Below are positions 7,646-27,900 of a stretch of 40,000 bases of DNA, piece after piece. The position numbers and the translations under genes are program-made. The stretch lies in NCBI GenBank assembly GCA_036702865.1, contig DATNQD010000053.1, forward strand, positions 1,611 through 41,610. The letters are read 5' to 3'. Below the pieces are notes generated by a model, which saw only the letters and a list, made by a program, of their open reading frames with translations, did not search any database and was not told the DNA's origin. Numbering within the stretch: position 1 is the stretch's first letter; every line of letters begins with the position of its first letter. The DNA is from Trichocoleus sp. Its GTDB lineage: Bacteria > Cyanobacteriota > Cyanobacteriia > Elainellales > Elainellaceae.

Positions 7646-7715
7646 ATTCGAGTCTCCTAAATTAATATAGCAATGTGAATCCAAGTGCTATACAGAATAT
7701 CTAAAGGCGTTGTGA

Positions 7716-10182: not shown

Positions 10183-10572
10183 ATGCGCAAGTGGAAGCTC
10201 ACCACGGAATTTACCTTTGATGCCGCTCACTATATCCGGGACTGCGACGGTCCCTGTGGGCGAATGCATGGACATACCTACCGGGTGCGGATTGAGGCAG
10301 CCTCTAGCCAGCTTCATGCCTCGGAGTACTGTCCTCATCCCGTTATGGTTGCTGATTTCCGCACGCTCCGTTGGGCAAAGCAAGACCTACTCAAAGGAGG
10401 GCTTGACCATTCGGTTCTAAACGAAGTTCTACCCGAAGGCTACGAAACCACTGCCGAGATGATCGCCCAACATATCTACGACAAGACGAAAAAGCAACTG
10501 CCCCCGGATGTGAAGCTAAAGGTTGCTGTGTCCGAAACGCCCAACTCTTGGGCGGAGTATGAGGACGACTAG
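10183..10572 (+). CDS. queD: 6-carboxy-5,6,7,8-tetrahydropterin synthase
   Basis: 129 aa. FTFDAAHYI ... CGRMHGHTYRVRIE ... LDHSVLNE is the PTPS/QueD zinc and catalytic-site pattern. It sits next to queE and queC. Confidence 0.9.
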   Translation: MRKWKLTTEFTFDAAHYIRDCDGPCGRMHGHTYRVRIEAASSQLHASEYCPHPVMVADFRTLRWAKQDLLKGGLDHSVLNEVLPEGYETTAEMIAQHIYDKTKKQLPPDVKLKVAVSETPNSWAEYEDD

Positions 10573-10583
10573 GAGTAACCGTT

Positions 10584-11222
10584 ATGACAAGCCTGATCCC
10601 CACTACCTCAACTTCTAAAACAGCCTCGGCAGCCTTGCCAGTTGTGGAAACCTTTCACTCAGTTCAAGGTGAGGGAGTTTGGGCAGGCACGAATGCCTTC
10701 TTTATTCGGCTAGCCGGATGTGACGTGGGATGTCCTTGGTGCGACACTAAGCATTCCTGGAATGCACGTCGCCATCCTCAACGCCTCACTACCGACCTGA
10801 TTACAGAAACTAAAGCGGCAAATCCGGCGATCGTTGTCATTACAGGTGGTGAACCCCTGCTGCATGACCTTTCCTCCCTCAGCAACGGGTTGAGAGTCGC
10901 AGAGCTGCGAGTCCATTTAGAGACCTCTGGAGCACACCCCTTCAGTGGCAGCTTCGACTGGATTACCTTCTCCCCTAAGCGATCCAAGCCACCTCACGAA
11001 AGCATTTATTCACGGGTAAGTGAACTGAAGGTCGTAGTTTCTGAACAGGCTGATCTGTCCTGGGCAGAGGATCAGGCAACCACAATCCCCACGGATGCAG
11101 TCCGGCTCCTCCAACCAGAATGGGGTACACCTGATAGCTACTCGCTCATCTTTGATTATGTTCTCAGCCATCCAGAATGGCGGCTCAGCTTACAGACCCA
11201 TAAATTTACTAATATTCGATGA
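10584..11222 (+). CDS. queE: 7-carboxy-7-deazaguanine synthase (radical SAM)
   Basis: 212 aa, with AGGAG at 10571-10575. ETFHSVQGEGVWAGTNAFFIRLAGCDVGCPWCDTKHSW has the QueE-type cluster motif at 10719-10742, followed by ITGGEPLL. Confidence 0.9.
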   Translation: MTSLIPTTSTSKTASAALPVVETFHSVQGEGVWAGTNAFFIRLAGCDVGCPWCDTKHSWNARRHPQRLTTDLITETKAANPAIVVITGGEPLLHDLSSLSNGLRVAELRVHLETSGAHPFSGSFDWITFSPKRSKPPHESIYSRVSELKVVVSEQADLSWAEDQATTIPTDAVRLLQPEWGTPDSYSLIFDYVLSHPEWRLSLQTHKFTNIR

Positions 11223-11490: not shown

Positions 11491-12213
11491 ATGAGTGCTC
11501 CAAAAGCCGTTGTTTTATTGTCTGGTGGTCTGGATTCATCAACCTCTGCTGCTCAAGCGATCGCTGATGGTTACGAGTTGATTGCTCTATCGCTCCATTA
11601 TGGACAAAGGCACGATCGCGAACTCATTGCTGCTAAGCGGGTGGCTGAGCATTTGGGGATCAAGGAACACTTTGTGGTGGATGTGAATTTGGCGCAGTGG
11701 GGTGGTTCTGCTTTGACTGACCAGGCTGTGGATGTGCCGACTGACGGTGTGAAGCCTGGTGTGATTCCCATTACCTATGTGCCGGGACGGAATACGGTCT
11801 TTCTGGCGATCGCTCTCTCCTTGGCGGAAGCCAAAGGAGCAGAAGCAATTTACTTGGGGATCAATGCCGTAGACTATTCTGGCTATCCTGACTGCCGACC
11901 AGAGTACCTAGAAGCTGTCCAGCACCTTGCAACCCTCTCCTCTAAAGCTGGTTTGGAAGGGCATGCCCCCAAGCTTGTGGCTCCACTTGTTATGGATTCC
12001 AAAGTAGATATTGTGCATCGTGCGTTACAACTGGACGTTCCTATTCACCTCACCTGGTCTTGCTATCAAGGCGAGGATAAACCCTGCGGGTTGTGCGACT
12101 CTTGCCGGATTCGCGATCGTGCTCTGATTGACGCAGGTAGACCCGATCTGGCAACGTTAGTAGGGCGAGAATTGTACGAACAGGAGAACCAATGCGCTAC
12201 CCCCGTGTCTTAA
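11491..12213 (+). CDS. queC: 7-cyano-7-deazaguanine (preQ0) synthase
   Basis: 240 aa. It has [13 protein letters not shown] (PP-loop), TYVPGRN, and the C-terminal Zn cluster [20 protein letters not shown]. Confidence 0.92.
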
Positions 12214-14270
12214 TCATTACATCGTGTACCGGGGAAAAGCGATTTAAGCCAGAGAATCAACTCACTCAGAAAGATTTTATGCATGCTGCTCGACTCCGCA
12301 AAAGAGAAAAGCAGCTTTCTGAATTTATGGCTCCGGCAGGAGAAATGTATACCGGGATGCAGCACATCCAGTTGATGGAGGGTGTGCGAACTCTATGCAA
12401 AACTTTAGAGAAGCCTGTAATTGATGTAGTTATCATCTCAGCAGGCTATGGGTTGATTTCTGAAGATCATGTAATTGCACCCTACGAAGTCACTTTCAAC
12501 ACAATGAAAGGGCATGAGATAGATGCCTGGGCAAAACGATTAAAAATACATCAATCACTTGAAAAAGCAATTTCTGACTATGATTTGATTTTTGTTCTAT
12601 TAGGTGAAAAGTATTTAAGGGCAATTTCGTTACCACTCACTCTTTACGAGGAACAAGCTTGGATATTTCTAGCTCCAGGAAGCTGTTCTAACTTAATTCA
12701 AACATTAAATCCCCAAGCTTTTGTCCTGCCTCTCTCTAACGCTGAGGCAAAAAAGTACGGCTTTGGTTCAGTAGGGTTAAAGGGCTTTTTATTTAAGCAG
12801 TTTGCCTTGGTTGCTTCGCAGCAACCTGAGTTGTTTGAACAAATCCATCAAACCCCTTGTCATTTTCAAGATGTTATTGATAGAACTACTCAACTCGAAC
12901 TCGATTTAGGCTTGCCTAAATCAGTAGCAAAAAATAAATTTAAGCAAGTTACGAAGAAAACTAACAGGGACGAATTCGTCCCTATTCCTCATTTGCCGCC
13001 TGCGCCGAACATTCATTTGGGTGTGCAATACTTTATCCCGGAATGGGATGATCGTGTTGACCCAGACTATAACTTCTTAACAGATTCTTTTGGTTCTCCC
13101 GACCGTGATCCTTATGCTGATGATGTGTATGCTCATGAATTGTTTCTTCGTGCAAACTTTGGTCCAAACTATGATGGTGTTCTAATTTCTAAAGTTGTTA
13201 TCGATGAAAGTCAAGCACGACGAGCCAAAGTAGAAGCTCAAGGTGTACATAAGTTCATCCGCTTTCACGGCAAAATCATGGGAGATTGTGGAGCGTTTGG
13301 CTATGTAGAGGACGACGAGCCACCTTACAATACGGATGAAATTCTCGATTACTATGAACGTCTTGGATTTAACTATGGTGTTAGCATTGATCACCTAATA
13401 GTTGGTCCCTTTGCTGAACCTGGAGTTCGTGAGAAGCGCTACAATCTAACGCGCAAGAATGCAGAAGAGTTTTTAAAGAAATATCAGCAACGGGATTTTC
13501 AGTTTACCCCAATCGGCGTTGCTCAAGGGTGGGATCCAGAGTCCTACGCCAAGGCAGTCAAAGAGCTAATTGAAATGGGCTACGACTATATTGCTTTGGG
13601 TGGATTAGCCCGTGCCCAAAACCGTGAAATTCTGCCGATTCTGGAAGCGATTCATCCTCATCTAGTTCCTACGGTGCGAATGCATTTATTTGGAGTAGCG
13701 AGAATTAATTCAATTTCCGCCTTTCGGCATTTGGGTGTAACAAGTTGCGATTCTGCTAGTCCATTGCGGCAAGCTTGGCTTGGAGCAACTGCTAATTACT
13801 ACACACCGTCAGATAAGCGATACGCAGCTATCCGGGTTCCACCTGTAGACCATAAAGGTGGCTTACGGATTAAACGCCTGTTGGAAGCAAAGGTTGCAGA
13901 CTTTGAGACCCTACAGCAACTTGAAAAAGACGCTTTGCAATCGCTGCGAGAATTTGATGCTGGCAGGCTAGACCTGGAATCAACTTTACAAACGATCCTT
14001 GCTTACGATGAACTGCTGGAACTACCGAAAGATGGTAAAGCTGAACCAGAAGCCCAAGCTAAGCGACGAGCCAAACATGAGGTCTTGTATCGAGACGTTC
14101 TGGAAGACCAACCCTGGAAAACTTGCAACTGCCCCATCTGCCAAAAAATAGGAATTGAGGTAATTATTTTCCGCAACAATAACCGTAACCGACGACGGGG
14201 GTTTCACAATACTTATGTGTTTTATAAAAGATTTCAAGAGTTGCTAAAAATACCTACGAAGCAATCATAG
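12192..14270 (+). CDS. dpdA: DpdA-like DNA-guanine transglycosylase (TGT superfamily) fused to an N-terminal DUF6884-like domain
   Basis: 692 aa, with AGGAGAA at 12180-12186. The start overlaps the queC 3' end by 22 nt. The N-terminal ~215 aa read [53 protein letters not shown]. The C-terminal ~420 aa read MGDCGAFGY (Asp codon 13284-13286), [26 protein letters not shown]. The TGT Zn site is C645-x-C647-x2-C650...H672 (14124-14207). Confidence 0.7.
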
Positions 14271-14445: not shown

Positions 14446-17400
14446 ATGCACTACCCAACCCCCCAAGTTCATCCTCTCTACATCCAGAGCGGTTCCCTGG
14501 TTCGCTCTCGCCTCAGCAGTTTAGGGGTTGGGAAAGTCTTATCTACTTCTGCGTCTGAAGCGTTAGTTGAGTATTTCGTCTCTATTGGAGAGCGAATCCA
14601 GAAAAAATCATCTTTTAATTCCTTAGAAAGAATTATTCTTCAGCGACATACTCGCTGCTATGTGTGGTTAGAGGAACATGAGGTCTGGCAGTCTGGCAGA
14701 ATCGCAACTTGGCACGATGACGATCGCCGCTACGAAGTCCACCTACCAGACAAGGGTGTGTACTACGCGACTGAGGCAGAAATTTACGTTCGCTGCGATC
14801 GTCCGATCGAAGATCCTACAGAAGTATTGATTATGAAGGGGCAAGAAACCCCCTTCTTCCATAGCCGACGGTCTGCTTTAGTTCGCTGCCTAATTGAGCA
14901 ACGGGCAGTCAGTCATGGCATGCCTAGTCTTCTTTCATCCAATGTTGATCTGTATCCTCACCAGGTGGAAGTTGTGCGGCGAGTTTTAGAAGATCCAATC
15001 CAGCGCTATCTTTTGGCAGATGAGGTTGGATTAGGCAAAACGATTGAAGCTGGTGTGATTCTTCGGCAGTATCTGCTGGATGAACCTGACGGGAAGGCAT
15101 TAATCGTTGTCCCTCGTCCCTTACTTAGGCAATGGAAACAAGAGCTGGAAGCTAAATTTCATTTAACTGATCAGGTAGAACTGCTTACAGTTGAAGATCT
15201 TCCTGCTTACCAATACACCACCCCGCCTGGCTTTCTGATTGTGGATGAAGCCCAGCATATTGCTGCTTTGGCAGAATCTACTGCCTTACAACAGCGGGGG
15301 TATTTTACAGTTATCCAACGACTCGCTCACCAAGTCGATTGCCTTCTGCTTCTTTCTGCAACACCTGCCCTCAACCATGAGCGGACTTTTTTGGCAATGT
15401 TACATCTCCTCGATCCAATTACTTACCGTTTGGAGGACATCATAGGCTTCAAGGAGCGGGTTCACCTGCGGCAAGACATTGGGCGAATACTACTCTCCTT
15501 TAAGGAAAGCGCTCCATCGTTTGTATTGAGAGCAAGTGTTGGAAAATTAAGAAGCCTTTTTGCCCAAGATCCTCGTCTGTTAACTTTAATCGAACAACTT
15601 GAGCATTCTCTAAGCTCACCAGAGGCTAATCCTACTGAACGAGGACGAGTGATCCGAGCGATCCGTACCCACATCAGCGATACCTACCGACTTCATCGCC
15701 GTATGTTGCGAAATCGTCGCGATACTGTGGAGGATGTTTTGTTGGATCAATCCAAAGCAAAGCTTCAGGTAGAGTATGACCTGGATGAACGATCGCCTAC
15801 GGTTCAGGAGTATTTAGATGAATGGCGTATCCGTGCGATCGCAGCCGCCGCCGGAGAGGATGACCCCTACTACCATCAACTTCGCCAGGTATTCTTGCTG
15901 CTGTTCAGTACCAGTGGAACTTGGCTAACCTTTTTAGAGTGGGTACTTTTGGCTCGACTCAATGGCGAAGTTGCCCCTGCTCTTATCAAGGAATTGGAGG
16001 CAACGTCTCTTGATTTGCTACTAAACACTCCCCAGTTTCTTGGTGAAGATGATATCCTTCAGAGTCTTCTTGACGTGATTCAGCAACCGTCTGAATATGG
16101 CGATCGCATTGAACACCTTCAGATGGTCTTGGAAGCCTGTGTCAAGAGTTCTAGACAGAAACCTGCGAAAATTGTAGTTTTCACAGGTTTTACCCACACT
16201 TGTCGGGAGTTGGTGCAGCGTCTATCTAGCACGTTGGGTAAACGAGCGATCGCAACTTATCAAGTAGGGCAATCGCTTGATGAGATAGAGAAGAACACAA
16301 ATCAGTTTAAGGATGATCCAAGTTGTTGTGTTTTGGTTTGCGACACTTCGGGAGAAGAAGGGCATAACTTGCAATTCGCCGACTGGATCATCCATTTCGA
16401 TCTACCTTTATCACCAAATCGAATTGAACAGCGAAACGGGCGATTAAGTCGGATCGGGCGAAATCGTTTACTCCAGTTTGTTGTTTTTGCTGGAGCTGAT
16501 ACAAGTGACAGCCTTCATGGGGCTTGGTATGAAGTCCTCAACAGTGGTTTCAAGATTTTTCAAGAATCAATCGCCAGTCTTCAATTTCTTGTGGACAGAA
16601 AGATACCTGATTTAGAAACTGCCTTATTTCAACTAGGAGCATACGGATTATCTGAGGCAATTCAATTAATTGGTGGTGAGATTACTGCTGAAAAAATCAG
16701 GATTGATGAACAAAACGTACTCGATGAAATTGATTCTTTAGAAGAGGGTGCAACTCAGTATTTTAAAGCCTTAGATGATTATGACGCTCGTCATCAGGAT
16801 ATCCAAGAGGCTGTGGAAGCTTGGCTTTGCCAAACCTTGAAGTTTAGGAGGTATGAAGACGATGACGCACCCGAAATCATTCGGTATAAGCGTTCTTCTG
16901 AAACTTTGATTCCAGCAGATGACTTAATTAAATACTTTAGAGGTTATCTCAATCAGCCCGGAACTTACCAGCGTCGTAAGGCTTTGCAACACGAAGAAGT
17001 GGTTCTTCATCGGATTGGTGAGGGGTTGATTGAGACTCTAAGTGAATATATTCACTGGGATGATCGAGGTCAGGCATTTGCCTTATGGCGACATGACGAA
17101 ACCTGGCCAGCAGAGGAAGGGATGGAATGGGTAGGTTTTCGCTTCGACTATATTGTTGAAGCCAATTTAACCCTTGTTAGTCAGGTATTTGAGCAGCATG
17201 GTGCGAATTATGCTAGCCAAGTTGCATTGAAGCGCCGTATGGATGCCATCTTTCCACCTATCGTCGAAACTATCTTTCTTGATACTCGTATGAATGTTGT
17301 GAAGGATCAATATCTTCTGAACATTCTGCAACAGCCTTACTCCAAAAAGCGCCAACCAACCCATGACTATAGCCTTAGCAAAGGCAGAGTGCCAATTATC

Positions 17401-17745
17401 GACGAATTTGTAAGTAGAGATGACTGGGAAAACTTGTGTCGCACTTCGCGGGAACAGTCCGCAATATCATTACGAAATCACCCTGATTTTTACAATCGCT
17501 GTCAACACTACGCGACTCAAGCAAAGCGGCAATTAGGCAATCGCTTGGAGCAACTTCAACTTCGGCTAGAACGCCAGTCTCAAGCGGATGTTGATGCATC
17601 TCTAATTCAAGAGATTGGGATTGAACGAGCGTTAAAACAGATTTTAGTCGATGGCATTCAGCATCCTCTGATTCGACTTGATTCCATTGGCTTTTACATT
17701 GTCTCTGGGCGATCACCCTGGCAAGATGAGGAGGTCATTGGTTAA
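14446..17745 (+). CDS. dpdE: SNF2/RapA-family ATPase, DpdE homologue
   Basis: 1099 aa. Motifs: ADEVGLGKT (15016-15042), LIVDEAQH, LLLSATP, GEEGHNLQ and QRNGRLSRIG. It is the first of six genes linked by start/stop overlaps, in the same order as dpdE-J of the Salmonella dpd island. Confidence 0.7.
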   Translation: MHYPTPQVHPLYIQSGSLVRSRLSSLGVGKVLSTSASEALVEYFVSIGERIQKKSSFNSLERIILQRHTRCYVWLEEHEVWQSGRIATWHDDDRRYEVHLPDKGVYYATEAEIYVRCDRPIEDPTEVLIMKGQETPFFHSRRSALVRCLIEQRAVSHGMPSLLSSNVDLYPHQVEVVRRVLEDPIQRYLLADEVGLGKTIEAGVILRQYLLDEPDGKALIVVPRPLLRQWKQELEAKFHLTDQVELLTVEDLPAYQYTTPPGFLIVDEAQHIAALAESTALQQRGYFTVIQRLAHQVDCLLLLSATPALNHERTFLAMLHLLDPITYRLEDIIGFKERVHLRQDIGRILLSFKESAPSFVLRASVGKLRSLFAQDPRLLTLIEQLEHSLSSPEANPTERGRVIRAIRTHISDTYRLHRRMLRNRRDTVEDVLLDQSKAKLQVEYDLDERSPTVQEYLDEWRIRAIAAAAGEDDPYYHQLRQVFLLLFSTSGTWLTFLEWVLLARLNGEVAPALIKELEATSLDLLLNTPQFLGEDDILQSLLDVIQQPSEYGDRIEHLQMVLEACVKSSRQKPAKIVVFTGFTHTCRELVQRLSSTLGKRAIATYQVGQSLDEIEKNTNQFKDDPSCCVLVCDTSGEEGHNLQFADWIIHFDLPLSPNRIEQRNGRLSRIGRNRLLQFVVFAGADTSDSLHGAWYEVLNSGFKIFQESIASLQFLVDRKIPDLETALFQLGAYGLSEAIQLIGGEITAEKIRIDEQNVLDEIDSLEEGATQYFKALDDYDARHQDIQEAVEAWLCQTLKFRRYEDDDAPEIIRYKRSSETLIPADDLIKYFRGYLNQPGTYQRRKALQHEEVVLHRIGEGLIETLSEYIHWDDRGQAFALWRHDETWPAEEGMEWVGFRFDYIVEANLTLVSQVFEQHGANYASQVALKRRMDAIFPPIVETIFLDTRMNVVKDQYLLNILQQPYSKKRQPTHDYSLSKGRVPIIDEFVSRDDWENLCRTSREQSAISLRNHPDFYNRCQHYATQAKRQLGNRLEQLQLRLERQSQADVDASLIQEIGIERALKQILVDGIQHPLIRLDSIGFYIVSGRSPWQDEEVIG

Positions 17746-20288
17746 TGCAAGACGTTTTTCAACAAATCCGAGATTACATAAGCGGTGAAGCTGTTGGATT
17801 ACCTCATCCTGAGAACTGTTCCGAGTCCTGCCAACGGCGTTTAGTGCGAGCTTTAAGAGAAACTGGAGCCTACAAACCAGGATCAAAAGACATAGTAGCG
17901 TTAATTCGCCATTTCCTACGACATGGAGCAACGCAACAAGGTAGTCCCTCTATTACTCAAAAAGTTTCGCGCAAGATAATTTCATATTTTGGGAAACCCA
18001 ATAACCAAAACTATTGGGAGTCATCGAGTCTCAAGGTTTTAAGGGAGGAGGCAGAATATTTTTTGGTTGATGCCAATCCTTGGCAACCTAATTGGTTGAA
18101 TGAGAGTGCTTGGGAAACACTTGATATAGCAGCTTTTCAAGAAATTGAACGACGCACGACAGAATCCGTATCAGGAGACCCATTCTTATCTCAAATGGGA
18201 TTGAAAACATATCAAAGCTCAGGGCAGCGTCAAGCAATCCGATCAATTTTAACTGCCCCTTCTACTTCGACATTGGTCATCAATTTACCTACTGGCTCTG
18301 GAAAAAGTCTTTGTGCCCATCTACCTGCATGGCTACAGTCTGGCTCAGTTGGTGTAACTATCGTAGTTGTGCCAACGACTGCTCTAGCCATCGACCAAGA
18401 ACGAGCCTTTCAATCCCGGACAAAGACTAGTGATGCAGTTGCTTATTATCAGGATGATTCTTTACCTGGGCAGGAACGGCGTGAGGAGATTCGCAATCGA
18501 ATTCGTAACGGTACTCAACGAATTGTTTTTACCTCCCCAGAGGGACTTTTAGATTCTCTGGCAGGTAGTGTGTATGAAGCGGCAGAACGAGGGTTCTTAC
18601 GTTACTTCATAATCGATGAGGCTCACATGGTTGAGCAGTGGGGGGATGAGTTCCGCCCCAGTTTTCAAGAATTGCCTGGATTTCGCCGCTCTCTTCTCAG
18701 GCTTACCTCATTCCCAACAATTCTATTAACTGCAACACTGACTTCATCTTGTCTGGATACCCTAGAAACTTTGTTTGCAGAACCAGGTCCGTTCCAAACA
18801 CTCTCAGCAGTTCAGTTGCGTCCAGAGCCTTCCTACTGGTTTGCCTGGTGTCGTAGCCAGGAAGAGCGGCAGCAACGCCTACTCGAATCCTTAGACAATT
18901 TACCCCGACCTATCATTATCTATGGTAGCAAGAAACAGGATGTAGAAGATTGGTTCAAAACTCTGCAGAACAGTGGTTTCAAACGTTCTTCTATGATGAC
19001 GGGCGACTCATCACTTGCAGAACGACTAAAACTTTTGGAAGACTGGCAAAATTGTCGAGTAGATATTGTCGTTGCCACGTCTGCCTTTGGATTAGGAGTA
19101 GATTTGCCAGATGTTAGGGTTGTTATACACGGATGTGTGCCGGAAACAATAGATCGTTTCTATCAGGAAGTAGGTCGTGGTGGTCGAGATGGAAAAGCAA
19201 CAATTTCTCTGACTCTGCACACCACTGCTGATTTAGATATTGCTGCCAAACTCAATGAGAAGTCCTTCATCACAATCGATTTGGGTCGTCAGCGATGGAC
19301 TGCGATGTTTAACAAGAAGACTGCCTATTCTAATGGGTGTTATTGTGTTCCAGTTGACACGGCACCCTCTTATAGCCCTGACTTGATAGGCGATCGCAAT
19401 CGTGCCTGGAACATACGAACATTGACTTTAATGAGCCGTTCAGGATTAATTTCCCTGGATTCTCAGCCACCTCCAAAACAAATTAATTTTGACTCCGAAG
19501 TAGAATATCAACGAGCATTGCAAACGAATCGAAATCTACGCATTCTTCAGATTCAGAATGAATATCACTTGGAGTCAGAAACCTGGCAAACGATCGTCGA
19601 ACCTATCCGTCAACAACAGCAACAATGGACTTATAAAAGTCTGAAACTTATGAGAGAGGCATTACGAGGAAAGCGTTGCCTTTCAGAAATCTTTGCTGAA
19701 GCTTACCGTATTCCTACTCGTGAAGACCCTCGCAGAAGTCAAGTTTTTGTCTCTCTTTCCTGTGGTAGTTGCTCATTTTGCCGTCAACAAAACCGTCAAC
19801 CTTTTTTTGGTATCTCACCCAATCCATTACCTGTTTGGAAGCAGCCTGCCTTTTATGTTGGCGAAACATTACAAGAAAAACTAGCAGGATTTCAACAGCT
19901 ATTCATCTTTTACTCCCCTCCTGCTAACAAACTAACAGAGTTGCGTCGAGGCAAATTCTTTAAGTGGCTTATTGATCAGGGGATTCGAAATCTAGTTGCC
20001 CCTCTAAGTTTGTATGAATCGCTAGCAAAGACTGCTGGCAAAACTCCTATCTTTTTATTTGAGGAGTACGACTCATTGCGAATGCCCAAAATTCCAACCC
20101 TCGTTATTCATCCTGAGAAAATTTCTTTACCATCAAAATACCTGCTTCCCTTATCCTCTGAGGCTCCTATCGTTCTCTTCTTGCCTATTGATACTCCTGA
20201 TCCCAAAGTCCCCCATCGCCGACTAATTGAGGTCTGTTCAGGCCGGCATTTTACCTTCGACTCCTTCTGCATGGAGATTAGCCTATGA
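17745..20288 (+). CDS. dpdF: RecQ-like DEAH-box helicase, DpdF homologue
   Basis: 847 aa. The ATG overlaps the dpdE stop (TAATG at 17743-17747), with GAGGAGG upstream. Motifs: PTGSGKS (18288-18308), FIIDEAHMV, LLTATLT, ATSAFGLGVDLPDVRVVIH, QEVGRGGRDG. Confidence 0.7.
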   Translation: MQDVFQQIRDYISGEAVGLPHPENCSESCQRRLVRALRETGAYKPGSKDIVALIRHFLRHGATQQGSPSITQKVSRKIISYFGKPNNQNYWESSSLKVLREEAEYFLVDANPWQPNWLNESAWETLDIAAFQEIERRTTESVSGDPFLSQMGLKTYQSSGQRQAIRSILTAPSTSTLVINLPTGSGKSLCAHLPAWLQSGSVGVTIVVVPTTALAIDQERAFQSRTKTSDAVAYYQDDSLPGQERREEIRNRIRNGTQRIVFTSPEGLLDSLAGSVYEAAERGFLRYFIIDEAHMVEQWGDEFRPSFQELPGFRRSLLRLTSFPTILLTATLTSSCLDTLETLFAEPGPFQTLSAVQLRPEPSYWFAWCRSQEERQQRLLESLDNLPRPIIIYGSKKQDVEDWFKTLQNSGFKRSSMMTGDSSLAERLKLLEDWQNCRVDIVVATSAFGLGVDLPDVRVVIHGCVPETIDRFYQEVGRGGRDGKATISLTLHTTADLDIAAKLNEKSFITIDLGRQRWTAMFNKKTAYSNGCYCVPVDTAPSYSPDLIGDRNRAWNIRTLTLMSRSGLISLDSQPPPKQINFDSEVEYQRALQTNRNLRILQIQNEYHLESETWQTIVEPIRQQQQQWTYKSLKLMREALRGKRCLSEIFAEAYRIPTREDPRRSQVFVSLSCGSCSFCRQQNRQPFFGISPNPLPVWKQPAFYVGETLQEKLAGFQQLFIFYSPPANKLTELRRGKFFKWLIDQGIRNLVAPLSLYESLAKTAGKTPIFLFEEYDSLRMPKIPTLVIHPEKISLPSKYLLPLSSEAPIVLFLPIDTPDPKVPHRRLIEVCSGRHFTFDSFCMEISL

Positions 20289-21160
20289 GCGTCCTGAAAC
20301 AAGTGCTAGCCACACCTAGTAGAGTCAAAGGGGTAGTCCGCTATCTACTGCAATGTAGAAAGCAACAGGAAAAAATAGACACACTAGAGAAAATCCTGTC
20401 CCCCGAAACTCTGATTAGTAAGGGAGAAGATAAGAAAGTATCACGCGATATGGTGCATTCCACAATATTAGAGTGTATCAAGATGGGGCTTTTGGAACGG
20501 GAAGATGAGGTTGTAAGGTTGCATCCTATCCTTTCGTTAAAAGATGACACAGTTCTACCAAATATCCTGTTGAGTCTAATACTCTCCCCCGAAAATTCTG
20601 AGAATCATGATTTAGCGATAGTAATAGCGTGGTATTTGGCCCAGGATTTCTACGAAGCTCCCAAAAACTGGCAGGAAGCTGAAGAGAAACTGAAGCAAAT
20701 TGATTCTGAATTACTAGGACTCGACCGCACGCGGTTTGACCAGTTTGAATACTGGGCTTGTTACTTGGGACTCGCTTGGCAACATAATTTAGGAAAAAAT
20801 AGAAATTCTGTTCTTGTACCTGATCCAACCGCCTGCTTAAAACAACTGCTACCTAATTTATTTGAACAGGTCGGTGAGCCACTTTCTCTGCCAGAATTTG
20901 TGAATTGTTTAGCAAAAACCTGTCCTATCTTTGAGTTAGGGCGTTTTCGGGAAGACATCGAGAACAAACTTAATCGAAGACAATTGAATCATCTTTCCTC
21001 TGTAACTACAATTTCACTTTTACGATTACAAGATGAAGGATTAATTCGGCTTTCTAAGCCCTCAGATAGTGAGATTTTTGTTCTGAATGATGGTGAAGAA
21101 GTACAGCGTATTTCTCACATTACTTGGTACGGTACAAAAAGAGGAGCAGGAAGGCCATGA
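20285..21160 (+). CDS. dpdG: hypothetical protein at the DpdG position
   Basis: 291 aa, with an ATGA overlap onto dpdF (20285-20288). I recognise no motif. The assignment rests only on position and size within the dpdE-J order. Confidence 0.45.
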   Translation: MSVLKQVLATPSRVKGVVRYLLQCRKQQEKIDTLEKILSPETLISKGEDKKVSRDMVHSTILECIKMGLLEREDEVVRLHPILSLKDDTVLPNILLSLILSPENSENHDLAIVIAWYLAQDFYEAPKNWQEAEEKLKQIDSELLGLDRTRFDQFEYWACYLGLAWQHNLGKNRNSVLVPDPTACLKQLLPNLFEQVGEPLSLPEFVNCLAKTCPIFELGRFREDIENKLNRRQLNHLSSVTTISLLRLQDEGLIRLSKPSDSEIFVLNDGEEVQRISHITWYGTKRGAGRP

Positions 21161-24100
21161 CATTTACCAAATATGCTTGCTGGCATTTAGACAGGGTACG
21201 CAATGTCATGAACGTTGAAGCGACATTGCCTTCCGATCCGACCTTTATGGCGACACATCAATCTGTTCCTATGTATCGCCAAAACTTAACGGAGAAAGCT
21301 GCAAACATTGAATATGATGAAGTCACCTTTTTGCAGGATTTCTTGGCATCTCCTGATTTTGCCTTTGTACCCGTGTTAGGAGATTCGGGAACAGGGAAAT
21401 CTCACTTAATTCGTTGGCTCTATATTCAAATCAAGCAATTACGCTCAGATTTGAATCACAGAATACTGCTAATCCCTAAAGTAAAAACTAATCTACGCGA
21501 CATTCTTGATCTGCTTCTACAGGATTTAGAAGGACCAGAATTTGATGAATATCGTAAACGCTTAAGAGCAACCTCAACAACTCTCACTGATATAGAGGCG
21601 CGACAACAATTACTGGCTAATTTGGCGATCGCAGTAGGGCGCAAAGCACTAGACTATCCTGCTAATCTTTCAGAGATTCAGGCGTATTTGGTTGAGGCTC
21701 TACCCGATTTCCTGAATGATCCTTATTTTCGTAGGCACTGGCTGAAAGATGAGGGTATTATTCATCGACTAGTTATCCATACGCTAGGTCACCGAGACTC
21801 TGTTGAACCAGTAGAAGAACGGCGACAGTTTGCGCTTGATGACTTACCGCTCAGTGCATCAGACTTGAAAAACGCCAGTGCCCAAGCTCGTGATTTCTTT
21901 GCTTTCCTAATTGGCAACGAAGAAGTTCAGCAGGAGACAGTGAAATGGCTTAATCGTCACCTAGATGAAGCTATTGCTCGTGTCCTTAATTTAGGGCGAG
22001 AAGACCTACAGCGCTTGATGTTAGATGTGCGACGAGCTTTAGCTAAACAAAATATTGAATTAATTCTATTGATCGAAGACTTCGCTAAGCTACAAGGAAT
22101 TGATCGAGAAGTTCTTGAATCTGTACTAGCGCGTACACAGCAGGATAGCAAAGAACCTCTATGCACGATGCGAACGGCCCTAGCTTGTACAACTGGCTAT
22201 TTTCGAAGCTTGCTAGATACTATTCGAGGGCGAGTTGAATTCCTTATTAACTTAGACATAGAAACAACTGATGATCAGATTTTGATGCCTCATTTGCTTC
22301 AGTTAGTTACTAAGTATTTAAACACAGTTCGTTTGGATGAAAATCAAATCCAAAGTTGGTTTGAGAATGGCGAGGATCGCTTGGGGGAAAACCCTGTTCC
22401 AATTGCATGTGCAGACTGTCCTTTTCGTGAACCATGTCATACAGGGTTTGGAGAGATTAATGGAATCGGGCTTTACCCCTTTACGGTTAAAGCTTTGGAA
22501 AGAATGCACGACCGCATCAAGGGAAACAACTTTAACCCGCGTAGTTTAATTAAGAATGTTCTACGTCATACACTGGAGTATCACAGACATGATCTAGAAA
22601 GAGGGTATTTCCCTTCTATAATGCTGCGAGAGCATTTTGGTCAATCCACTATTGACCCTCGAACTCGTCAAGAAATCGAACGACGCGACTCACAAAACGC
22701 TCGTCGCCGTGAAGTGCTACTGGATTTTTGGACAGACGGGCAGGAACTGCGTGACCTTTCCAATGAAATTCATACTGCTTTCGATTTACCTGCGTTGGGT
22801 GTGGAGATACAACCAACGCTTACCCCAAGAATTGTTGCTAAGGTCGCAGAAGCTCCAGCAATAGTGACAGTTTTTAAGCCTGGTTATGATTCCACTCCGG
22901 AGCTAATATCCCAGACAAGTTTCCCACCAGCAGAATTACTTCCTGCTCTAGACATGTTAAGAGCCTGGAGTAATGGTGCTCAACTTCCTCAAAATTTGGC
23001 TCAGGAGTTACGTACTCTGCTGTACGAAGCGATTAAGCAGCACATCGATTGGGATGCAGAGTTACTTCTTTTTAGTCAGGTTGGAAAACTGTTTGACAAG
23101 GCTCGTAACATCAACTTCCAAAATGCAGCCACAGACTCTGAAGTTAAATCTGGCATAAAACTAATATTGCCTTTAAACTCTCAAGATCTCGACAATACGG
23201 TTATTGCTCTAAGGGCATTACTCTTCTACAACTATTACAAAACTTGGAAGTATCCTGGTGGAACTGCTGATTTTCGTGCATATGCGCGGCAGTTAGAGAA
23301 ATGGAGTCAGTGGGTTCTGCAACAAATTTACAATCGGCCTCGACAATCGGGTGAACTTTGGAATCCTGTGCCTGCTGCTGCTGAGTTGATCGTGATCGGA
23401 GCCAGGATGGCGGGTTGTTCAATGGATTCAACGGAAGATCTGGTCAATGCTGTATTTGTCAAACCTGAGGATTCAGAACTAGACAAGCGATCAGCTACTT
23501 GGCGAAAACTATTTACAACTATCACTACAAATTATGACCAAATGAAGAACCGCGCTAGTTTACGAGACATCATTGACAGTCGTATTTCCTGCACAAAAGG
23601 AGGTGCAACAGGCTTTAAGGTCATTGACGCAGCTCAACTCATTGCTCCTTTAAGGGCGGTGGCACAAGGTTGGCAACCCAGGTGCGAAATTCCGGAGGAC
23701 TTTAGGGCAGAGGAGTTTAAAGCAATTCAACAAACGCGTGAACAAGTTGACTTATTACTGTCGCAAGCAGTCTTCGAGGAGCGTGACCGTCAATTGACTG
23801 TTTATCGTCGCTTAATTGCAGAATTAGGCAGTGATTTTATGCAAAAGGATGTTGCTGAGGCTTTACAGCAAACTATTCAGACAGTTCGTGATGCGGGTGT
23901 ATCAGGCATCGCAAATTTGAAGGGAGTAGAGGAGGCAGTTGAAATATTCAGGGGGGCAAGATTAAGAGATTGGATCAACACGATGAAACGGGTTGAACAT
24001 GAAACTGAGGTTGGTTGTCTTCTGTCACAATTAAGTGGCACATCCCATCGCCCCATTGAAGTGATTACACAATTTCTTGATCAAGCCAGAAACTTTATAG

Positions 24101-24252
24101 ATAAATCACTCAATCAAACTCAAAACAAAATAACTCAACTTGAGCAAGGGGGCGGCAAAGACCTTCAAGCTACTGAACAGGCGATTCAACAAGGACTTTC
24201 AGAACTGCTGGAATTTGTTGAAGAGATTCAAGGAGAAACACTATGCTTTTAG
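21157..24252 (+). CDS. dpdH: large P-loop NTPase at the DpdH position
   Basis: I prefer ATG 21157, which makes an ATGA overlap with the upstream stop and has GAGGAGCAGGAAGG upstream. The track's 21124 start is a TTG. Walker A GDSGTGKS is at 21379-21402 and a Walker B-like LILLIEDF follows. The product is 1031 aa. Confidence 0.55.
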   Translation: MTFTKYACWHLDRVRNVMNVEATLPSDPTFMATHQSVPMYRQNLTEKAANIEYDEVTFLQDFLASPDFAFVPVLGDSGTGKSHLIRWLYIQIKQLRSDLNHRILLIPKVKTNLRDILDLLLQDLEGPEFDEYRKRLRATSTTLTDIEARQQLLANLAIAVGRKALDYPANLSEIQAYLVEALPDFLNDPYFRRHWLKDEGIIHRLVIHTLGHRDSVEPVEERRQFALDDLPLSASDLKNASAQARDFFAFLIGNEEVQQETVKWLNRHLDEAIARVLNLGREDLQRLMLDVRRALAKQNIELILLIEDFAKLQGIDREVLESVLARTQQDSKEPLCTMRTALACTTGYFRSLLDTIRGRVEFLINLDIETTDDQILMPHLLQLVTKYLNTVRLDENQIQSWFENGEDRLGENPVPIACADCPFREPCHTGFGEINGIGLYPFTVKALERMHDRIKGNNFNPRSLIKNVLRHTLEYHRHDLERGYFPSIMLREHFGQSTIDPRTRQEIERRDSQNARRREVLLDFWTDGQELRDLSNEIHTAFDLPALGVEIQPTLTPRIVAKVAEAPAIVTVFKPGYDSTPELISQTSFPPAELLPALDMLRAWSNGAQLPQNLAQELRTLLYEAIKQHIDWDAELLLFSQVGKLFDKARNINFQNAATDSEVKSGIKLILPLNSQDLDNTVIALRALLFYNYYKTWKYPGGTADFRAYARQLEKWSQWVLQQIYNRPRQSGELWNPVPAAAELIVIGARMAGCSMDSTEDLVNAVFVKPEDSELDKRSATWRKLFTTITTNYDQMKNRASLRDIIDSRISCTKGGATGFKVIDAAQLIAPLRAVAQGWQPRCEIPEDFRAEEFKAIQQTREQVDLLLSQAVFEERDRQLTVYRRLIAELGSDFMQKDVAEALQQTIQTVRDAGVSGIANLKGVEEAVEIFRGARLRDWINTMKRVEHETEVGCLLSQLSGTSHRPIEVITQFLDQARNFIDKSLNQTQNKITQLEQGGGKDLQATEQAIQQGLSELLEFVEEIQGETLCF

Positions 24253-24950
24253 CGGACTGCCAACGCCTGAGAGATTTAGCTCAACATTCTGTTGGGCTAA
24301 AAGAGCGATTAGAGCAGGCTAACTTGTTTATTAAAAGGCAGGAGCAAATACAGGCAGCGTTAGATCGATTACAACCAGCAGTTGTTGCGTTTCGAGTATT
24401 GCGCGATCGCAACTTGATTACCTTGGAATTAAGTCAACAAACTGAGAGCTTTCTAGCTACGCTTCAACAAATCAATACACAGTTTTGTGCTCAACCCACC
24501 TGGATTTTAGAAACTAAAAATTTTAATCCTAAGCCTTTCCAAGCTCAAGTTGATTCTCTAGCAAATTCTTTAGAGCAAAACTTAAGTAAAGCATGGGCTA
24601 CCTACTGTGATCAGCGCATGCCGAGCAGCAACACTGAAATGCTTACGGTTTTGGGTAGGATCGCAACCCTCAAACATACTGTACAGACCATTCAAATACT
24701 CTCTGATGTGATTAAAAAAGTGGCGTACCCCAAAAGTACGGAAGAGTTCGAACAAATTGAGAAGAAGCTAACGCAATTATCAGAGTCTTGGAATAGCCTT
24801 AAGTCTGATGATATGCCCAATATGGTTCAACGTTTTTTGAGAGCGGCAGCAACCGAAGGCGCACCTGTAACGTTGTTAACAGAGGAGGTGAAGGACTGGC
24901 TAATTCAGCGCGGGCTTATTGATTCATTCCAGATCAGATCAATCAGTTGA
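24243..24950 (+). CDS. dpdI: hypothetical helical protein at the DpdI position
   Basis: 235 aa. The start overlaps the upstream gene by 10 nt. I recognise no motif; the assignment is by position only. Confidence 0.4.
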   Translation: MLLADCQRLRDLAQHSVGLKERLEQANLFIKRQEQIQAALDRLQPAVVAFRVLRDRNLITLELSQQTESFLATLQQINTQFCAQPTWILETKNFNPKPFQAQVDSLANSLEQNLSKAWATYCDQRMPSSNTEMLTVLGRIATLKHTVQTIQILSDVIKKVAYPKSTEEFEQIEKKLTQLSESWNSLKSDDMPNMVQRFLRAAATEGAPVTLLTEEVKDWLIQRGLIDSFQIRSIS

Positions 24951-24959
24951 ACCTATTAA

Positions 24960-27900
24960 GTGAAGTTGATCATGGGTGATTCTATAGACAGTTTAGTTCG
25001 TGATTTCCTGAATTCTTTAGAGAAGTTGGAAATTCGCCTTCTTGCGTGGGGCGTGGTGGATATTAGGGGAGGCTTCAGGGAAGAAGAAATCATAGAGCTT
25101 GCCGAGAATTTTATTGAGGTACAGCAGGCTGAGATAGATCCAGTGGATCTTGTGGCAGAGTTAGTGAACCGATGCCTGTTAATTGAACTGAATTCAAGAA
25201 GCGATCGCATCTACCGAACTCGTATGGCTGAGGCAGTCCGTCTTTTTGCGCGACTGCGGCAACTTTTTCCCAATCGAGATTGGCAAACCTCTTCAACGCT
25301 GGTAGCAGACTATCGCTTCTCTTTACGACAGCGAGTTTACCCACGGCGCAGCATCAATCCAGAACAAGTTGTTCAACGGATCGAAACAGACAAGTTGCTG
25401 ACTCCCACTCAGCGTGATGCATTAGAGGCAATGTTGCGCTCGCCTAACCGCACTTTGGAACTGGCGGATTTTCAGCTTCGAGCTACTGCTCGCATGTTAC
25501 GGGATCTCAATAGCCCGAAAAGTCGCGGCATGATTGTTTGTGCAGGAACAGGAACAGGCAAGACTTTGGCGTTTTACTTGCCTGCCCTGACTTATATTGC
25601 CGGATTGGTGAGAAAAACATTTTGGACAAAAGCGATCGCCATTTATCCACGCAATGAACTGTTGAAGGATCAGTTTTCTGAAACTTATACTGAGGCGCGC
25701 CGTTTAGATTCAGTGCTTACTGCTCAAGGGCAACGCAAGATTTTGATTGGAGCCTTCTTTGGTTTAACTCCTATAGAAGCCACGCTAGAAGACAAACGAC
25801 TCAAGGAGAAATGGACATCAGAGCGGGATGGCTTCACTTGTCCTTACCTCCGTTGTCCGCAATGCAACGGGGCTTTAAGTTGGAAGCGGGAGGATGTAGC
25901 CAAACGCAAGGAGCAATTGACCTGTTTAGACCGTGACTGTGGCGTTGTGATTCGTGACGATGAAATTATTCTGACCCGCAATCGCATGACCAAGTTTCCC
26001 CCCGATCTACTTTTCACTACGACCGAGATGCTCAACCGCTTGATGGGCGATTCTCAATATGGGCACATTTTTGGTGTGGGAGCAGACAAGACACCGCAAA
26101 TTGTTCTGCTGGATGAAGTTCACACCTATACCGGAATTCATGGAGCACAGGTTGCCTATCTACTACGGCGTTGGCAGCATGTCGTTGGTAAGCGAGTTCA
26201 GTTCACTGGCTTGTCAGCGACGCTACGCAGTGCAACTGAATTTTTCACACAGCTTGTTGGTTTAGCACCAGGAGCAGTGGAAGAAATTTCTCCTGGTGAT
26301 GACATGCAACCGGAGGGCATGGAATACCTCTTAGCATTGCGAGGTGATCCTGTGTCAGGAACTAGCTTGCTTTCTACGAGCATCCAAGCAGCAATGCTGT
26401 TGAGGCGAGTCCTTGATCCCTCAACCGATCCTCCTAGCGATGGCACTTATGGTTCTCGTGTGTTTGCTTTCACCGATGACCTTGATGTCACCAATCGCCT
26501 CTATCACAACTTGCTGGATGCAGAAGGGCGTAATAGTCGGCAACAGCCAATCAAACAGCCTCTAGCAGCGTTGAGGAATCTTCATGACGACGATCGTCTT
26601 ATTGCTGGGCAGTCGTGGTCTTTATGCCGTGATATTGGGCATAACTTAACGACTCACTTACAGGTTAGTCGGACGAGTTCTCAAGATACTGGGGTTGATC
26701 GACAAGCCGATGTAATCGTAGCAACCGCAGCACTGGAAGTTGGGTTTAATGATCCTAATGTAGGAGCCGTGATTCAGCACAAAGCTCCTAAAGATATGGC
26801 ATCCTTTCTACAGCGTAAGGGACGAGCAGGACGTAGCAGGGCAATGCGTCCCTGGACGGTCGTGGTGCTGTCTGATTATGGGCGCGATCGCATTGCTTAT
26901 CAAAGCTACGACTTGCTGTTTGATCCCACCCTTGAAGAGCGATTACTTCCTATCGCCAACCGCTATGTTATTCGTATCCAAGCCACATTTGCTTGCATGG
27001 ACTGGATCGCACAGCAAATGCAACGTGCTCCCCAAGGGAGTATCTGGAAAGACTTTTCTAAGCCTTCTTCCTTCTCACCGCAGCAGCAGCGTCAGCAGCA
27101 AGCTAAAACGATAATTCAATCTATCCTTAAAAACGAAAAACAGCAGCAAGCTCTAGAAAGCTACCTTCAGTCTGCACTCAAGATTTCTTGGGGGGAGACA
27201 CAAGCCATTCTGTGGGGGCCTCCCAGAGCATTGATGACAGCGGTTTTACCCACCCTCCTCCGACGACTAGAGGCAAATTGGCAACGGCTCCCATTGCCAG
27301 GGGAACCCGAGTTGGACTATCACACGGACGATCCCTTACCTGACTTTGTACCGGCTAGCCTCTTTAGCGACTTATTACTACCTGAAGTTCGCATTGTTAC
27401 ACCTCCTGCCACCCAGCAGACGACAGAATCCGATGAATACTATCTACCGATCCTTCAGGCTCTCAAAACTTTTGCACCTGGGCGTGTTTCCCGGCGTTTT
27501 GGGGTGCAACGCAGCCAGATTAGCCATTGGATTGCACCACCTGAGTTGATCGCTGGACATCAGACTTTATTGATCGACCAATACTGTGCTGAGTTTGAGG
27601 AAGCTGGCACATTCCAGATTTGGCAGCAGGAAGGAGTTGCAAATATTCGCTGTATTCGTCCTTGGACACTGAGGGTTGCTCAGATTCCGTCGGAAGTTAG
27701 TGATAAATCGAATGCACAACTGCAATGGCATACACAAATTGTTCCACCAACCAGCGGCAATTCATTAGACTTACCTCAAGGATCGCTATGGTTAGAGATT
27801 GTTTCTGAGCTTTGTAGCTTTACTCATAACCAGCAAAATCCCTTAGAGGTAAGACGTTTTGCTCTGGGTTCTCAGGCAAATCTACGAGTCAAGCGCAATC

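Follow-up and report, generated by a model that had tools for sequence, protein, structure and literature searches.

What does an additional domain do when it is joined to the N-terminus of DpdA, the DNA-guanine transglycosylase of the bacterial Dpd islands? This question is raised by a gene in a stretch of DNA of 40,000 nucleotides from the cyanobacterium Trichocoleus sp. (GenBank assembly GCA_036702865.1, contig DATNQD010000053.1, positions 1,611 to 41,610), hereafter the window, whose product combines a DUF6884 domain with a complete DpdA. The DpdA of Salmonella needs DpdB and ATP (PMC10164549), and a preliminary description of the locus had proposed that the N-terminal domain (N-domain), taken as an orphan, is a built-in replacement for a DpdB that is missing from the window. 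Our analysis points in another direction: the N-domain is, as judged from profile comparisons, homologous at the family level to DpdC, a different and already characterized component of these systems. We regard it as likely that the protein is a bifunctional DpdC-DpdA fusion, which would insert 7-cyano-7-deazaguanine (preQ0) into DNA and convert it to dADG (2'-deoxy-7-amido-7-deazaguanosine), and that it belongs to a queDEC-dpd(C~A)-dpdEFGHIJ island without DpdB, DpdD or DpdK; both catalytic activities, the dADG product and the independence from DpdB are predictions.

The gene is a single unbroken open reading frame (ORF) in the ORF listing of the window, with an ATG start and 692 codons (12192..14270, plus strand), and it holds all the strings quoted in the preliminary description, including MYTGMQH (residues 52-58), LHLFGV, CNCPIC (645-650) followed by H672, and further ones at residues 6-17, 79-102 and 365-369, which bears out the two-domain layout given there. 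Relatives were collected in a protein search covering 5.8 billion proteins and in a genome scan with one genome per species, which gave 422 relatives; locus counts below rest on the best 80 of these. By its sequence the C-terminal half is an intact DpdA. The NCBIfam equivalog model for DpdA (NF041059) matches residues 279-683 over model positions 2-405 of 406, with 476.2 bits against a cut-off of 200, and the Pfam model for tRNA-guanine transglycosylases (TGT; PF01702) matches residues 347-531. Residue mapping went through the Enterobacter DpdA (40% identity), which carries at positions 95, 99, 130, 181, 236 and 256 the residues that PMC10164549 names in the Salmonella enzyme. D365 thereby corresponds to Asp95, the general acid/base, F369 to Phe99, D400 to Asp130, which contacts the base, and D520 to Asp256, the nucleophile. 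Unlike the Salmonella Montevideo bDpdA, the window protein has Gln445 in place of His181 and Phe500 in place of Leu236, in addition to the extra N-domain. The mapped residues are conserved across the fused family: the catalytic Asp residues are invariant in all 73 fused proteins compared, the zinc ligands are found in 70 of the 73, and the C645/C647/C650/H672 site is invariant in an alignment of 33 homologues. The catalytic Asp residues are thus retained, as is the CxCxxC...H zinc site noted in the preliminary description, and they predict the guanine/preQ0 exchange typical of DpdA. The clustering of the gene with preQ0 synthesis genes upstream (queDEC) and dpd restriction genes downstream (dpdE-J) is likewise that of the Salmonella Montevideo bDpdA.

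The N-domain was assigned to DUF6884 in the preliminary description, and a Pfam scan agrees (PF21818, residues 45-148; 49.4 bits, gathering score 30; E = 6.6e-13). Both this match and that of DpdA score far above what chance would yield. It displays the motifs TSC12xxxK16, Y53xGxQH58, S83AGYG87, P97Y98xxTF102, W113 and Y141. The first and third of these supply the CxxxK (C12-TGE-K16) and LSAxxG-type (I82-SAGYG87) motifs of DUF6884, which the 2024 Pfam paper relates to YaaA and for which it predicts DNA binding with base flipping. The above-threshold DUF6884 match and these two motifs are features held in common with Bacillus subtilis YfjM and Escherichia coli YaaA (PF03883, PDB 5CAJ); unlike the N-domain, those proteins stand alone, are DNA-damage-related or of no assigned function, and have no link to 7-deazaguanine genes. 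The domain is not the orphan that had been supposed, since the characterized DpdC belongs to DUF6884; the link is already in print, as the GATOR-GC study includes 'DUF6884, e.g. dpdC' in its list of dpd-island domains, and earlier reviews describe DpdC as DUF328/YaaA-like.

Several profile methods connect the N-domain to DpdC directly. The PADLOC DpdC models match residues 5-109 (E = 2.5e-10 and 5.5e-10), and a hidden Markov model (HMM) of canonical DpdC retrieves the window ORF at E = 5e-9. When a profile built from 33 N-domains and nearby stand-alone relatives is compared in hhalign with one of 21 canonical DpdCs of 318 residues, it gives a probability of 99.2% (E = 1.1e-19, 204 columns), aligning residues 4-219 with DpdC residues 2-244. 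Every DpdC invariant in the aligned span is kept identically: C10, K14, Y61, G63, S84 and A85 of DpdC correspond to C12, K16, Y53, G55, S83 and A84 of the window protein, and G86, G88, Y99, T102, W128 and Y165 to G85, G87, Y98, T101, W113 and Y141. With the DpdC of Salmonella Montevideo and other Enterobacterales (~318 residues) the N-domain thus shares the superfamily and the TxCxxxK, YxG, SAGxG, PYxxTF, W and Y invariants. A core consisting of C12, K16, Y53, G55, Q57, H58, S83, A84, G87, P97, Y98, F102 and Y141 is invariant in the 73 fused proteins, which come from several phyla. Profile methods are needed here, BLASTP aligning only a 26-residue segment of the N-domain with the Enterobacter DpdC. 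The NCBIfam library (release 20) holds no DpdC model and gives the N-domain no DpdC match; this miss is uninformative because the canonical Enterobacter DpdC also remains unmatched.

The canonical reference was located on an Enterobacter cloacae plasmid, where the gene directly 5' of dpdA-dpdB, annotated as hypothetical, encodes DpdC (PADLOC E = 6e-142). Its ORF reads ITTCTNGK...LYKGGHW...ILSAGLGLL...PYKATF, to be compared with ITSCTGEK...MYTGMQH...IISAGYGLI...PYEVTF in the window protein. It scores just under the Pfam DUF6884 threshold, and about one-third of 94 listed homologues of the Enterobacter DpdC carry a precomputed PF21818 match. On the E. cloacae plasmid pPOL9A the annotated DpdC coding sequence (L005:13941-14915; 283 residues) starts 36 model positions late; the deposited start is probably wrong, as the upstream frame holds ITTCTNGK.

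Gene context runs parallel to these similarities. In canonical clusters dpdC, dpdA and dpdB adjoin one another in this order, and the position of dpdC directly upstream of dpdA is mirrored by the order in which the fusion carries its domains. The two parts are split in one cyanobacterial genome of 7.6 Mb, where a gene for a DUF6884 protein of 247 residues overlaps one for a DpdA of 471 residues, and decayed loci retain the N-terminal piece only. Although dpdC accompanies dpdA in 88% of genomes overall (PMC5699537), an HMM search turned up no second DpdC/DUF6884 gene, either in the window or across the 80 fused loci, the two apparent exceptions being a duplicated fusion gene (L034) and a frameshift (L054). 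In the window, HMM scans of ORFs of at least 100 residues and tblastn with Enterobacter seeds detected no separate dpdC, dpdD or dpdK; no tblastn match is better than E = 0.08 except that of the Enterobacter DpdC seed, which is to the fusion gene itself.

These observations can be joined in a simple scheme. QueD, QueE and QueC, encoded directly upstream and apparently translationally coupled to the fusion, would supply preQ0, with folE assumed to lie elsewhere in the genome. By homology to the Salmonella enzyme, the DpdA barrel would swap a DNA guanine for preQ0 by way of a covalent intermediate at Asp520, Asp365 serving as general acid/base. The YaaA-like DUF6884 domain, tethered by a disordered linker of about 26 residues, would bind the modified site, flip out the resulting preQ0 deoxynucleoside (dPreQ0) and hydrate its nitrile to the carboxamide, yielding dADG, which in canonical systems is the job of a separate DpdC. 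The Cys12/Lys16 motif is the probable catalytic centre, and a thioimidate mechanism may be envisaged by analogy with QueF and the nitrilases; the assignment of nitrile hydration as such draws on the shared active-site residues and on context. DpdE to DpdJ would then restrict DNA without the mark. In evolutionary terms the fusion would be a Rosetta-stone joining of the neighbouring dpdC and dpdA and no replacement of DpdB, with this DpdA clade working without a DGQHR ATPase or using one encoded elsewhere. The preliminary description had allowed, as a fallback, that the N-domain processes the inserted base. This is the better of its two readings, but the activity would not be new biochemistry, the conversion of dPreQ0-DNA to dADG-DNA being the reaction that DpdC carries out in vitro, independently of DpdA and DpdB (PMC10164549).

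A number of observations weigh against this scheme. Identity between the N-domain and canonical DpdC in the hhalign alignment is only about 19%. The fused domain, of about 230 residues and covalently joined to DpdA, lacks the C-terminal ~75 residues of DpdC, so that the invariants L291, R295, E302 and F306 have no counterpart; instead of the full-length DpdC architecture of 300-320 residues, the alignment stops at DpdC residue 244 of 318 and gives way to the linker and DpdA. Stand-alone DUF6884 proteins outside Dpd systems are 40-45% identical to the N-domain and thereby much nearer to it than canonical DpdC, and generic DUF6884 proteins of the stand-alone kind are as near to DpdC as the N-domain itself: three of these (L009, L090, L091) match the DpdC models as strongly as it does (E = 4e-11 to 3e-7). 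An exhaustive profile search yielded 398 representatives at E <= 1e-30, and the top 150 consist mostly of stand-alone proteins of about 230 residues, with about 18 fused to DpdA. Foldseek with the AlphaFold2 model of the N-domain returned nothing significant from the PDB, as did a profile search of PDB sequences. A YaaA-like alpha/beta ('cantaloupe') fold, for which sequence profiles, viral DUF6884 models and the Pfam paper speak, is therefore not confirmed; the YaaA match is weak (E = 1e-3 in Pfam and NCBIfam), and viral proteins labelled DUF6884 or YaaA are matched by the N-domain model at E = 3e-7 to 1e-4. The literature that we searched contained no DNA nucleoside analysis of any fusion-bearing organism. 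Finally, a bDpdA is expected to have a partner DpdB, on which the Salmonella DpdA depends, and the 40-kb window has none. Since stand-alone DUF6884 proteins unrelated to Dpd score equally, the matches to DpdC models are family-level, and the domain may descend from DpdC itself or have been recruited separately; we accordingly do not call it an orthologue of DpdC.

The genomic settings of the three stand-alone proteins are diverse. One is encoded beside genes for GIY-YIG_3, ADP-ribosylglycohydrolase, phosphatase and McrBC proteins (L009:10001-16075), and the other two belong to tandem DUF6884 pairs in ordinary neighbourhoods outside Dpd loci (L090:8001-9801 and L091:7288-8684).

This proximity to stand-alone DUF6884 proteins in non-Dpd contexts, with their equal DpdC-model scores, lends some weight to an alternative: the N-domain could be a working DUF6884 enzyme that differs from DpdC in its chemistry or its substrate. 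Such an enzyme might hydrolyse the nitrile beyond the carboxamide to the acid (dCDG) or form another derivative, several further 7-deazaguanine derivatives being known in DNA, or recognize or act on a damaged or unmodified base, the B. subtilis YfjM being tied to abasic and RNA-base lesions in the 2024 Pfam paper. Either the DNA mark finally made or the part played by the domain would in that case depart from canonical Dpd; the low identity to canonical DpdC and the lack of its C-terminal region would fit such a divergence. However, all the invariants shared with DpdC are retained, the domain is the sole member of the DpdC family in the 80 fused loci, it adjoins the queDEC genes that make preQ0, which is the nitrile substrate, and gene order and split forms parallel dpdC-dpdA; moreover, the island encodes no further tailoring enzymes. 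We therefore consider a different chemistry possible but rather unlikely, and retain the conversion of dPreQ0 to dADG as the predicted reaction.

The role of DpdB requires separate consideration. The preliminary description was right in that DpdB is missing from the window: models of DpdB (NF041060), DGQHR and DndB proteins find no match among its ORFs of at least 100 residues, and tblastn with four DpdB/DndB-like seeds (the Enterobacter DpdB and three cyanobacterial DndB-like proteins) reaches a best E of 0.08. Neither the window nor the N-domain resembles DpdB or the DndB-like DGQHR ParB-like ATPases (TIGR03187, PF14072) at the sequence level, no DGQHR/ParB-like or P-loop signature is found in the N-domain by Pfam, NCBIfam or PADLOC, and a search of residues 1-272 with E values up to 10 gives no DGQHR/ParB-like match either. 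For each of the 80 genomes we examined the 10 kb to either side of the fused gene, searching all ORFs with the seeds and with an HMM built from stand-alone DGQHR ORFs. A DndB-like DGQHR gene lies within this distance in 19 of the 80 loci, all cyanobacterial, at 1-6 kb downstream, and 61 have none; where both flanks extend over at least 8 kb (48 loci), it is present in 13 and absent from 35. Thus, about 73-76% of fused loci are without a neighbouring DpdB-like gene, compared with 8% of dpdA genomes in general, DpdB being present in the remaining 92% (PMC5699537). It has also been noted in the literature that some clusters may do without DpdB.

The loci with a DGQHR gene include the Allocoleopsis PCC 7113 plasmid and Phormidesmis priestleyi, and in locus L046 the gene occurs together with dpdE-H. 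A protein of 1205 residues (P0020) combines all three components as a DUF6884-DpdA-DndB-like triple fusion, PF14072 matching within its last 516 residues (E = 2.6e-9). It is encoded at L001:6092-9709 and also in L002 and L003, on contigs where no dpd restriction genes are close by; a modification module made of one protein is conceivable here. In P. priestleyi BC1401, the closest named genome (83% identity), the DndB-like gene takes the form of two overlapping ORFs (L010:12619-13880) and the fused protein matches residues 1-604 only; this system is possibly decaying.

These data separate the two parts of what had been proposed. The DpdB-less state is indeed far commoner among fused loci than among dpdA genomes at large, but DUF6884 and DpdB are not mutually exclusive, as canonical dpdC-dpdA-dpdB clusters, the 19 fused loci with a DGQHR gene and the triple fusion all combine them. 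Moreover, the N-domain core does not vary among the fused proteins, of which 17 have a DGQHR neighbour and 56 have none, and this, together with the lack of a nucleoside triphosphatase (NTPase) signature, argues for the same role of the N-domain either way, and not that of an ATPase. Two readings nevertheless connect the tether to the missing DpdB. According to the first, which we hold to be improbable, the fused proteins form a widespread clade that inserts preQ0 without a DGQHR ATPase, and their DUF6884 domain, through its tether, helps DpdA to engage or hand over the flipped nucleotide, whether or not it also forms dADG; if so, the ATP-driven DpdB would be needless in about three-quarters of fused systems. 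The second, more doubtful still, is the original proposal that DUF6884 takes over the accessory role of DpdB, be it to load DNA, flip bases or hydrolyse nucleotides. That the window has no DpdB, and most fused loci no DGQHR gene nearby, is compatible with it, as is the DNA binding with base flip predicted by the Pfam curators, an activity that the tether to DpdA would place at the target site. Yet the domain has no NTPase signature, its homologue DpdC does its work after DpdA and DpdB and does not depend on them, DpdC and DpdB occur together in canonical systems, a DGQHR gene is retained in 19 fused loci, one protein unites the three domains, and the identical core with or without DGQHR argues for one function in both situations. 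The N-domain is thus better placed with DpdC, with which hhalign aligns it at 99.2% probability, than in the position of a DpdB substitute.

The reality of the fusion itself is well founded. The protein search found more than 120 clusters (at 90% identity) of proteins of about 690 residues, at 52-100% identity, each with both Pfam domains, and the best 80 of the 422 genome relatives all match residues 1-686 in frame. These 80 loci are from Cyanobacteriota, Bacillota, Deinococcota, Chloroflexota, Myxococcota and Planctomycetota, including Paenibacillus, Bacillus, Calidithermus and one planctomycete, with finished chromosomes and plasmids among them. That the protein is an artefact of assembly, frameshift or annotation joining two genes can hence be dismissed as having next to no chance: splitting or decay is seen in a few relatives (L007, L008, L092) and the public gene call for the same sequence has another start, but the ORF of the window is continuous over 692 codons and is matched by these independent clusters and by loci of several phyla. 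A missed stop or frameshift near 12850-13000, which the preliminary description had considered, is not present; this stretch encodes a Lys-rich linker that is length-variable and gapped in the 33-sequence alignment, and in frame in all homologues. A full-length AlphaFold2 model has confident domains at residues 1-233 and 270-688, separated by a segment (234-259) with a predicted local distance difference test score (pLDDT) below 50; its predicted template modelling score (pTM) of 0.58 leaves the relative orientation of the domains undefined. Modelled alone, the N-domain reaches a pLDDT of 93 and a pTM of 0.91. A phage origin was also considered, and a bDpdA-like gene was seen in one phage record only and the N-domain in none.

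The start codon deserves a comment, as the public Joint Genome Institute (JGI) call of the same protein (P0001) has 663 residues and begins at Met30, losing the invariant TSCxxxK motif that lies within window 12192-12281. T10, S11, C12 and K16, all located 5' of Met30, are invariant in the 33 homologues, an AGGAG precedes the ATG at 12192 by six bases, and the 3' end of queC runs 22 nucleotides into the fusion gene, an overlap of the same length being present in Leptolyngbya sp. GGD. These three lines of sequence evidence establish the long start as correct, so that the ATG at 12192, and not Met30 of the JGI call, is the real start.

We found no description of the fusion in the searched literature, which left out Thiaville 2016 (PMC4801273) and Yuan 2018 (PMC6207457). 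The link between DUF6884 and DpdC and the DpdC reaction are known already, and the interest of the present case centres on the DpdB-less state of a DpdC-DpdA fusion. The fusion offers independent evidence, of the Rosetta-stone type, that DpdC and DpdA act at the same DNA sites, and it connects DUF6884, a large family that is mostly uncharacterized, with a defined reaction on a DNA base that is flipped out. For annotation, it is relevant that the Prokaryotic Genome Annotation Pipeline (PGAP) labels such proteins 'tRNA-guanine transglycosylase DpdA' only, and that canonical DpdC, with no NCBIfam model, is annotated as hypothetical; surveys that demand dpdA with dpdB, or a separate dpdC, would misjudge fused islands as dpdC-less or miss them. 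With most of its loci having no DpdB-like gene nearby, the fused clade also forms a natural test set for why the Salmonella DpdA needs the DpdB ATPase.

The features of the island are collected in Table 1. The names of the que genes are taken from Pfam, the NCBIfam scores of two of them being below cut-off: queD matches the QueD model at E = 1.6e-21 (76.5 bits; equivalog cut-off 89.25), and the top NCBIfam matches of queE are QueE models (for example E = 1e-35, 123 bits) whose equivalog cut-offs of at least 200 are not reached. The gene after dpdJ encodes a di-haem cytochrome c peroxidase. Among named relatives on a long contig, Leptolyngbya sp. GGD is the closest (82% identity); it shares the order queDEC-fusion-dpdEFGH, and the 10 kb around its fusion contain no DGQHR gene.

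Table 1. Coordinates of the fusion gene, its parts and the other genes of the Dpd island in the window
Feature	Position	Strand	Description	Evidence
queD	10183..10572	+	6-carboxytetrahydropterin synthase, first gene of preQ0 module	Pfam PTPS, E = 3.1e-30
queE	10584..11222	+	7-carboxy-7-deazaguanine synthase, radical SAM (S-adenosylmethionine)	Pfam Radical_SAM
queC	11491..12213	+	preQ0 synthase	Pfam QueC, E = 2.4e-71; TIGR00364, 221 bits (cut-off 150)
Ribosome-binding site	12181..12185	+	AGGAG, six bases 5' of the ATG at 12192	read from sequence
Fusion gene	12192..14270	+	692 residues: DpdC-family (DUF6884) domain, linker, DpdA	
N-terminal DpdC-family / DUF6884 domain	12192..12890	+	residues 1-233	
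Linker	12891..12968	+	residues 234-259; disordered, Lys-rich, length-variable	
DpdA domain	12999..14267	+	residues 270-692; DNA-guanine transglycosylase	
Zinc site of DpdA domain	14124..14207	+	C645-x-C647-x-x-C650...H672	regular expression; alignment with Enterobacter DpdA
dpdE	14446..17745	+	SNF2-type helicase	NCBIfam DpdE, 1073 bits (cut-off 500)
dpdF	17745..20288	+	RecQ-like DEAD-box helicase	NCBIfam DpdF, 892 bits (cut-off 550)
dpdG	20285..21160	+		NCBIfam DpdG, 116 bits (cut-off 80)
dpdH	21124..24252	+	large P-loop/AAA protein	NCBIfam DpdH, 848 bits (cut-off 450); Pfam AAA_22
dpdI-like gene	24243..24950	+		NCBIfam DpdI, E = 1.6e-11, 44.7 bits (cut-off 150 not reached); full-length alignment
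dpdJ	24960..29525	+	large helicase, last island gene	NCBIfam DpdJ, 1941 bits (cut-off 800)

The neighbourhoods of the fused gene in other genomes contain further conserved components. In 29 of the 80 loci it is directly followed by an ORF of about 292 residues (e.g. L006:2922-3806, L015:7571-8470 and L031:12041-12883) that belongs to a family without a match in Pfam, NCBIfam or PADLOC. This family aligns with the DpdA domain in hhalign (95.5% probability, E = 1.6e-8), with FFIDSGVF corresponding to MGDCGAF and YIALGGL to YIALGGL, and looks like an additional TGT/DpdA-like barrel that is short and divergent. The fused loci of Firmicutes and Chloroflexi (L093:12552-21033 on the Paenibacillus sp. 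37 plasmid pART37, and L063-L073) display a distinct conserved gene set, none of them with a DGQHR gene: a VUT/YhhQ-type transporter, the fusion, a hypothetical protein of 265 residues, a second TGT-like protein of 307 residues, a hypothetical protein of 246 residues and a P-loop NTPase of 1055 residues, followed by dpdJ/K or dpdE/F.

Upstream of the Dpd island, the window begins with the 3' part of a gene resembling a phosphorothioated-DNA-binding restriction endonuclease (21-383), followed by genes for a TcmP three-Cys-motif partner protein (779-2026; also a match to the PADLOC candidate PDC-M30A) and a radical SAM protein (2071-3087); together these genes may constitute a second defence or modification module. 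The two defence-like modules are separated by genes for a CHAT-domain protein (4508-5668), a trypsin-like peptidase (5720-7684, minus strand) and a pentapeptide-repeat protein of 704 residues (7716-9830).

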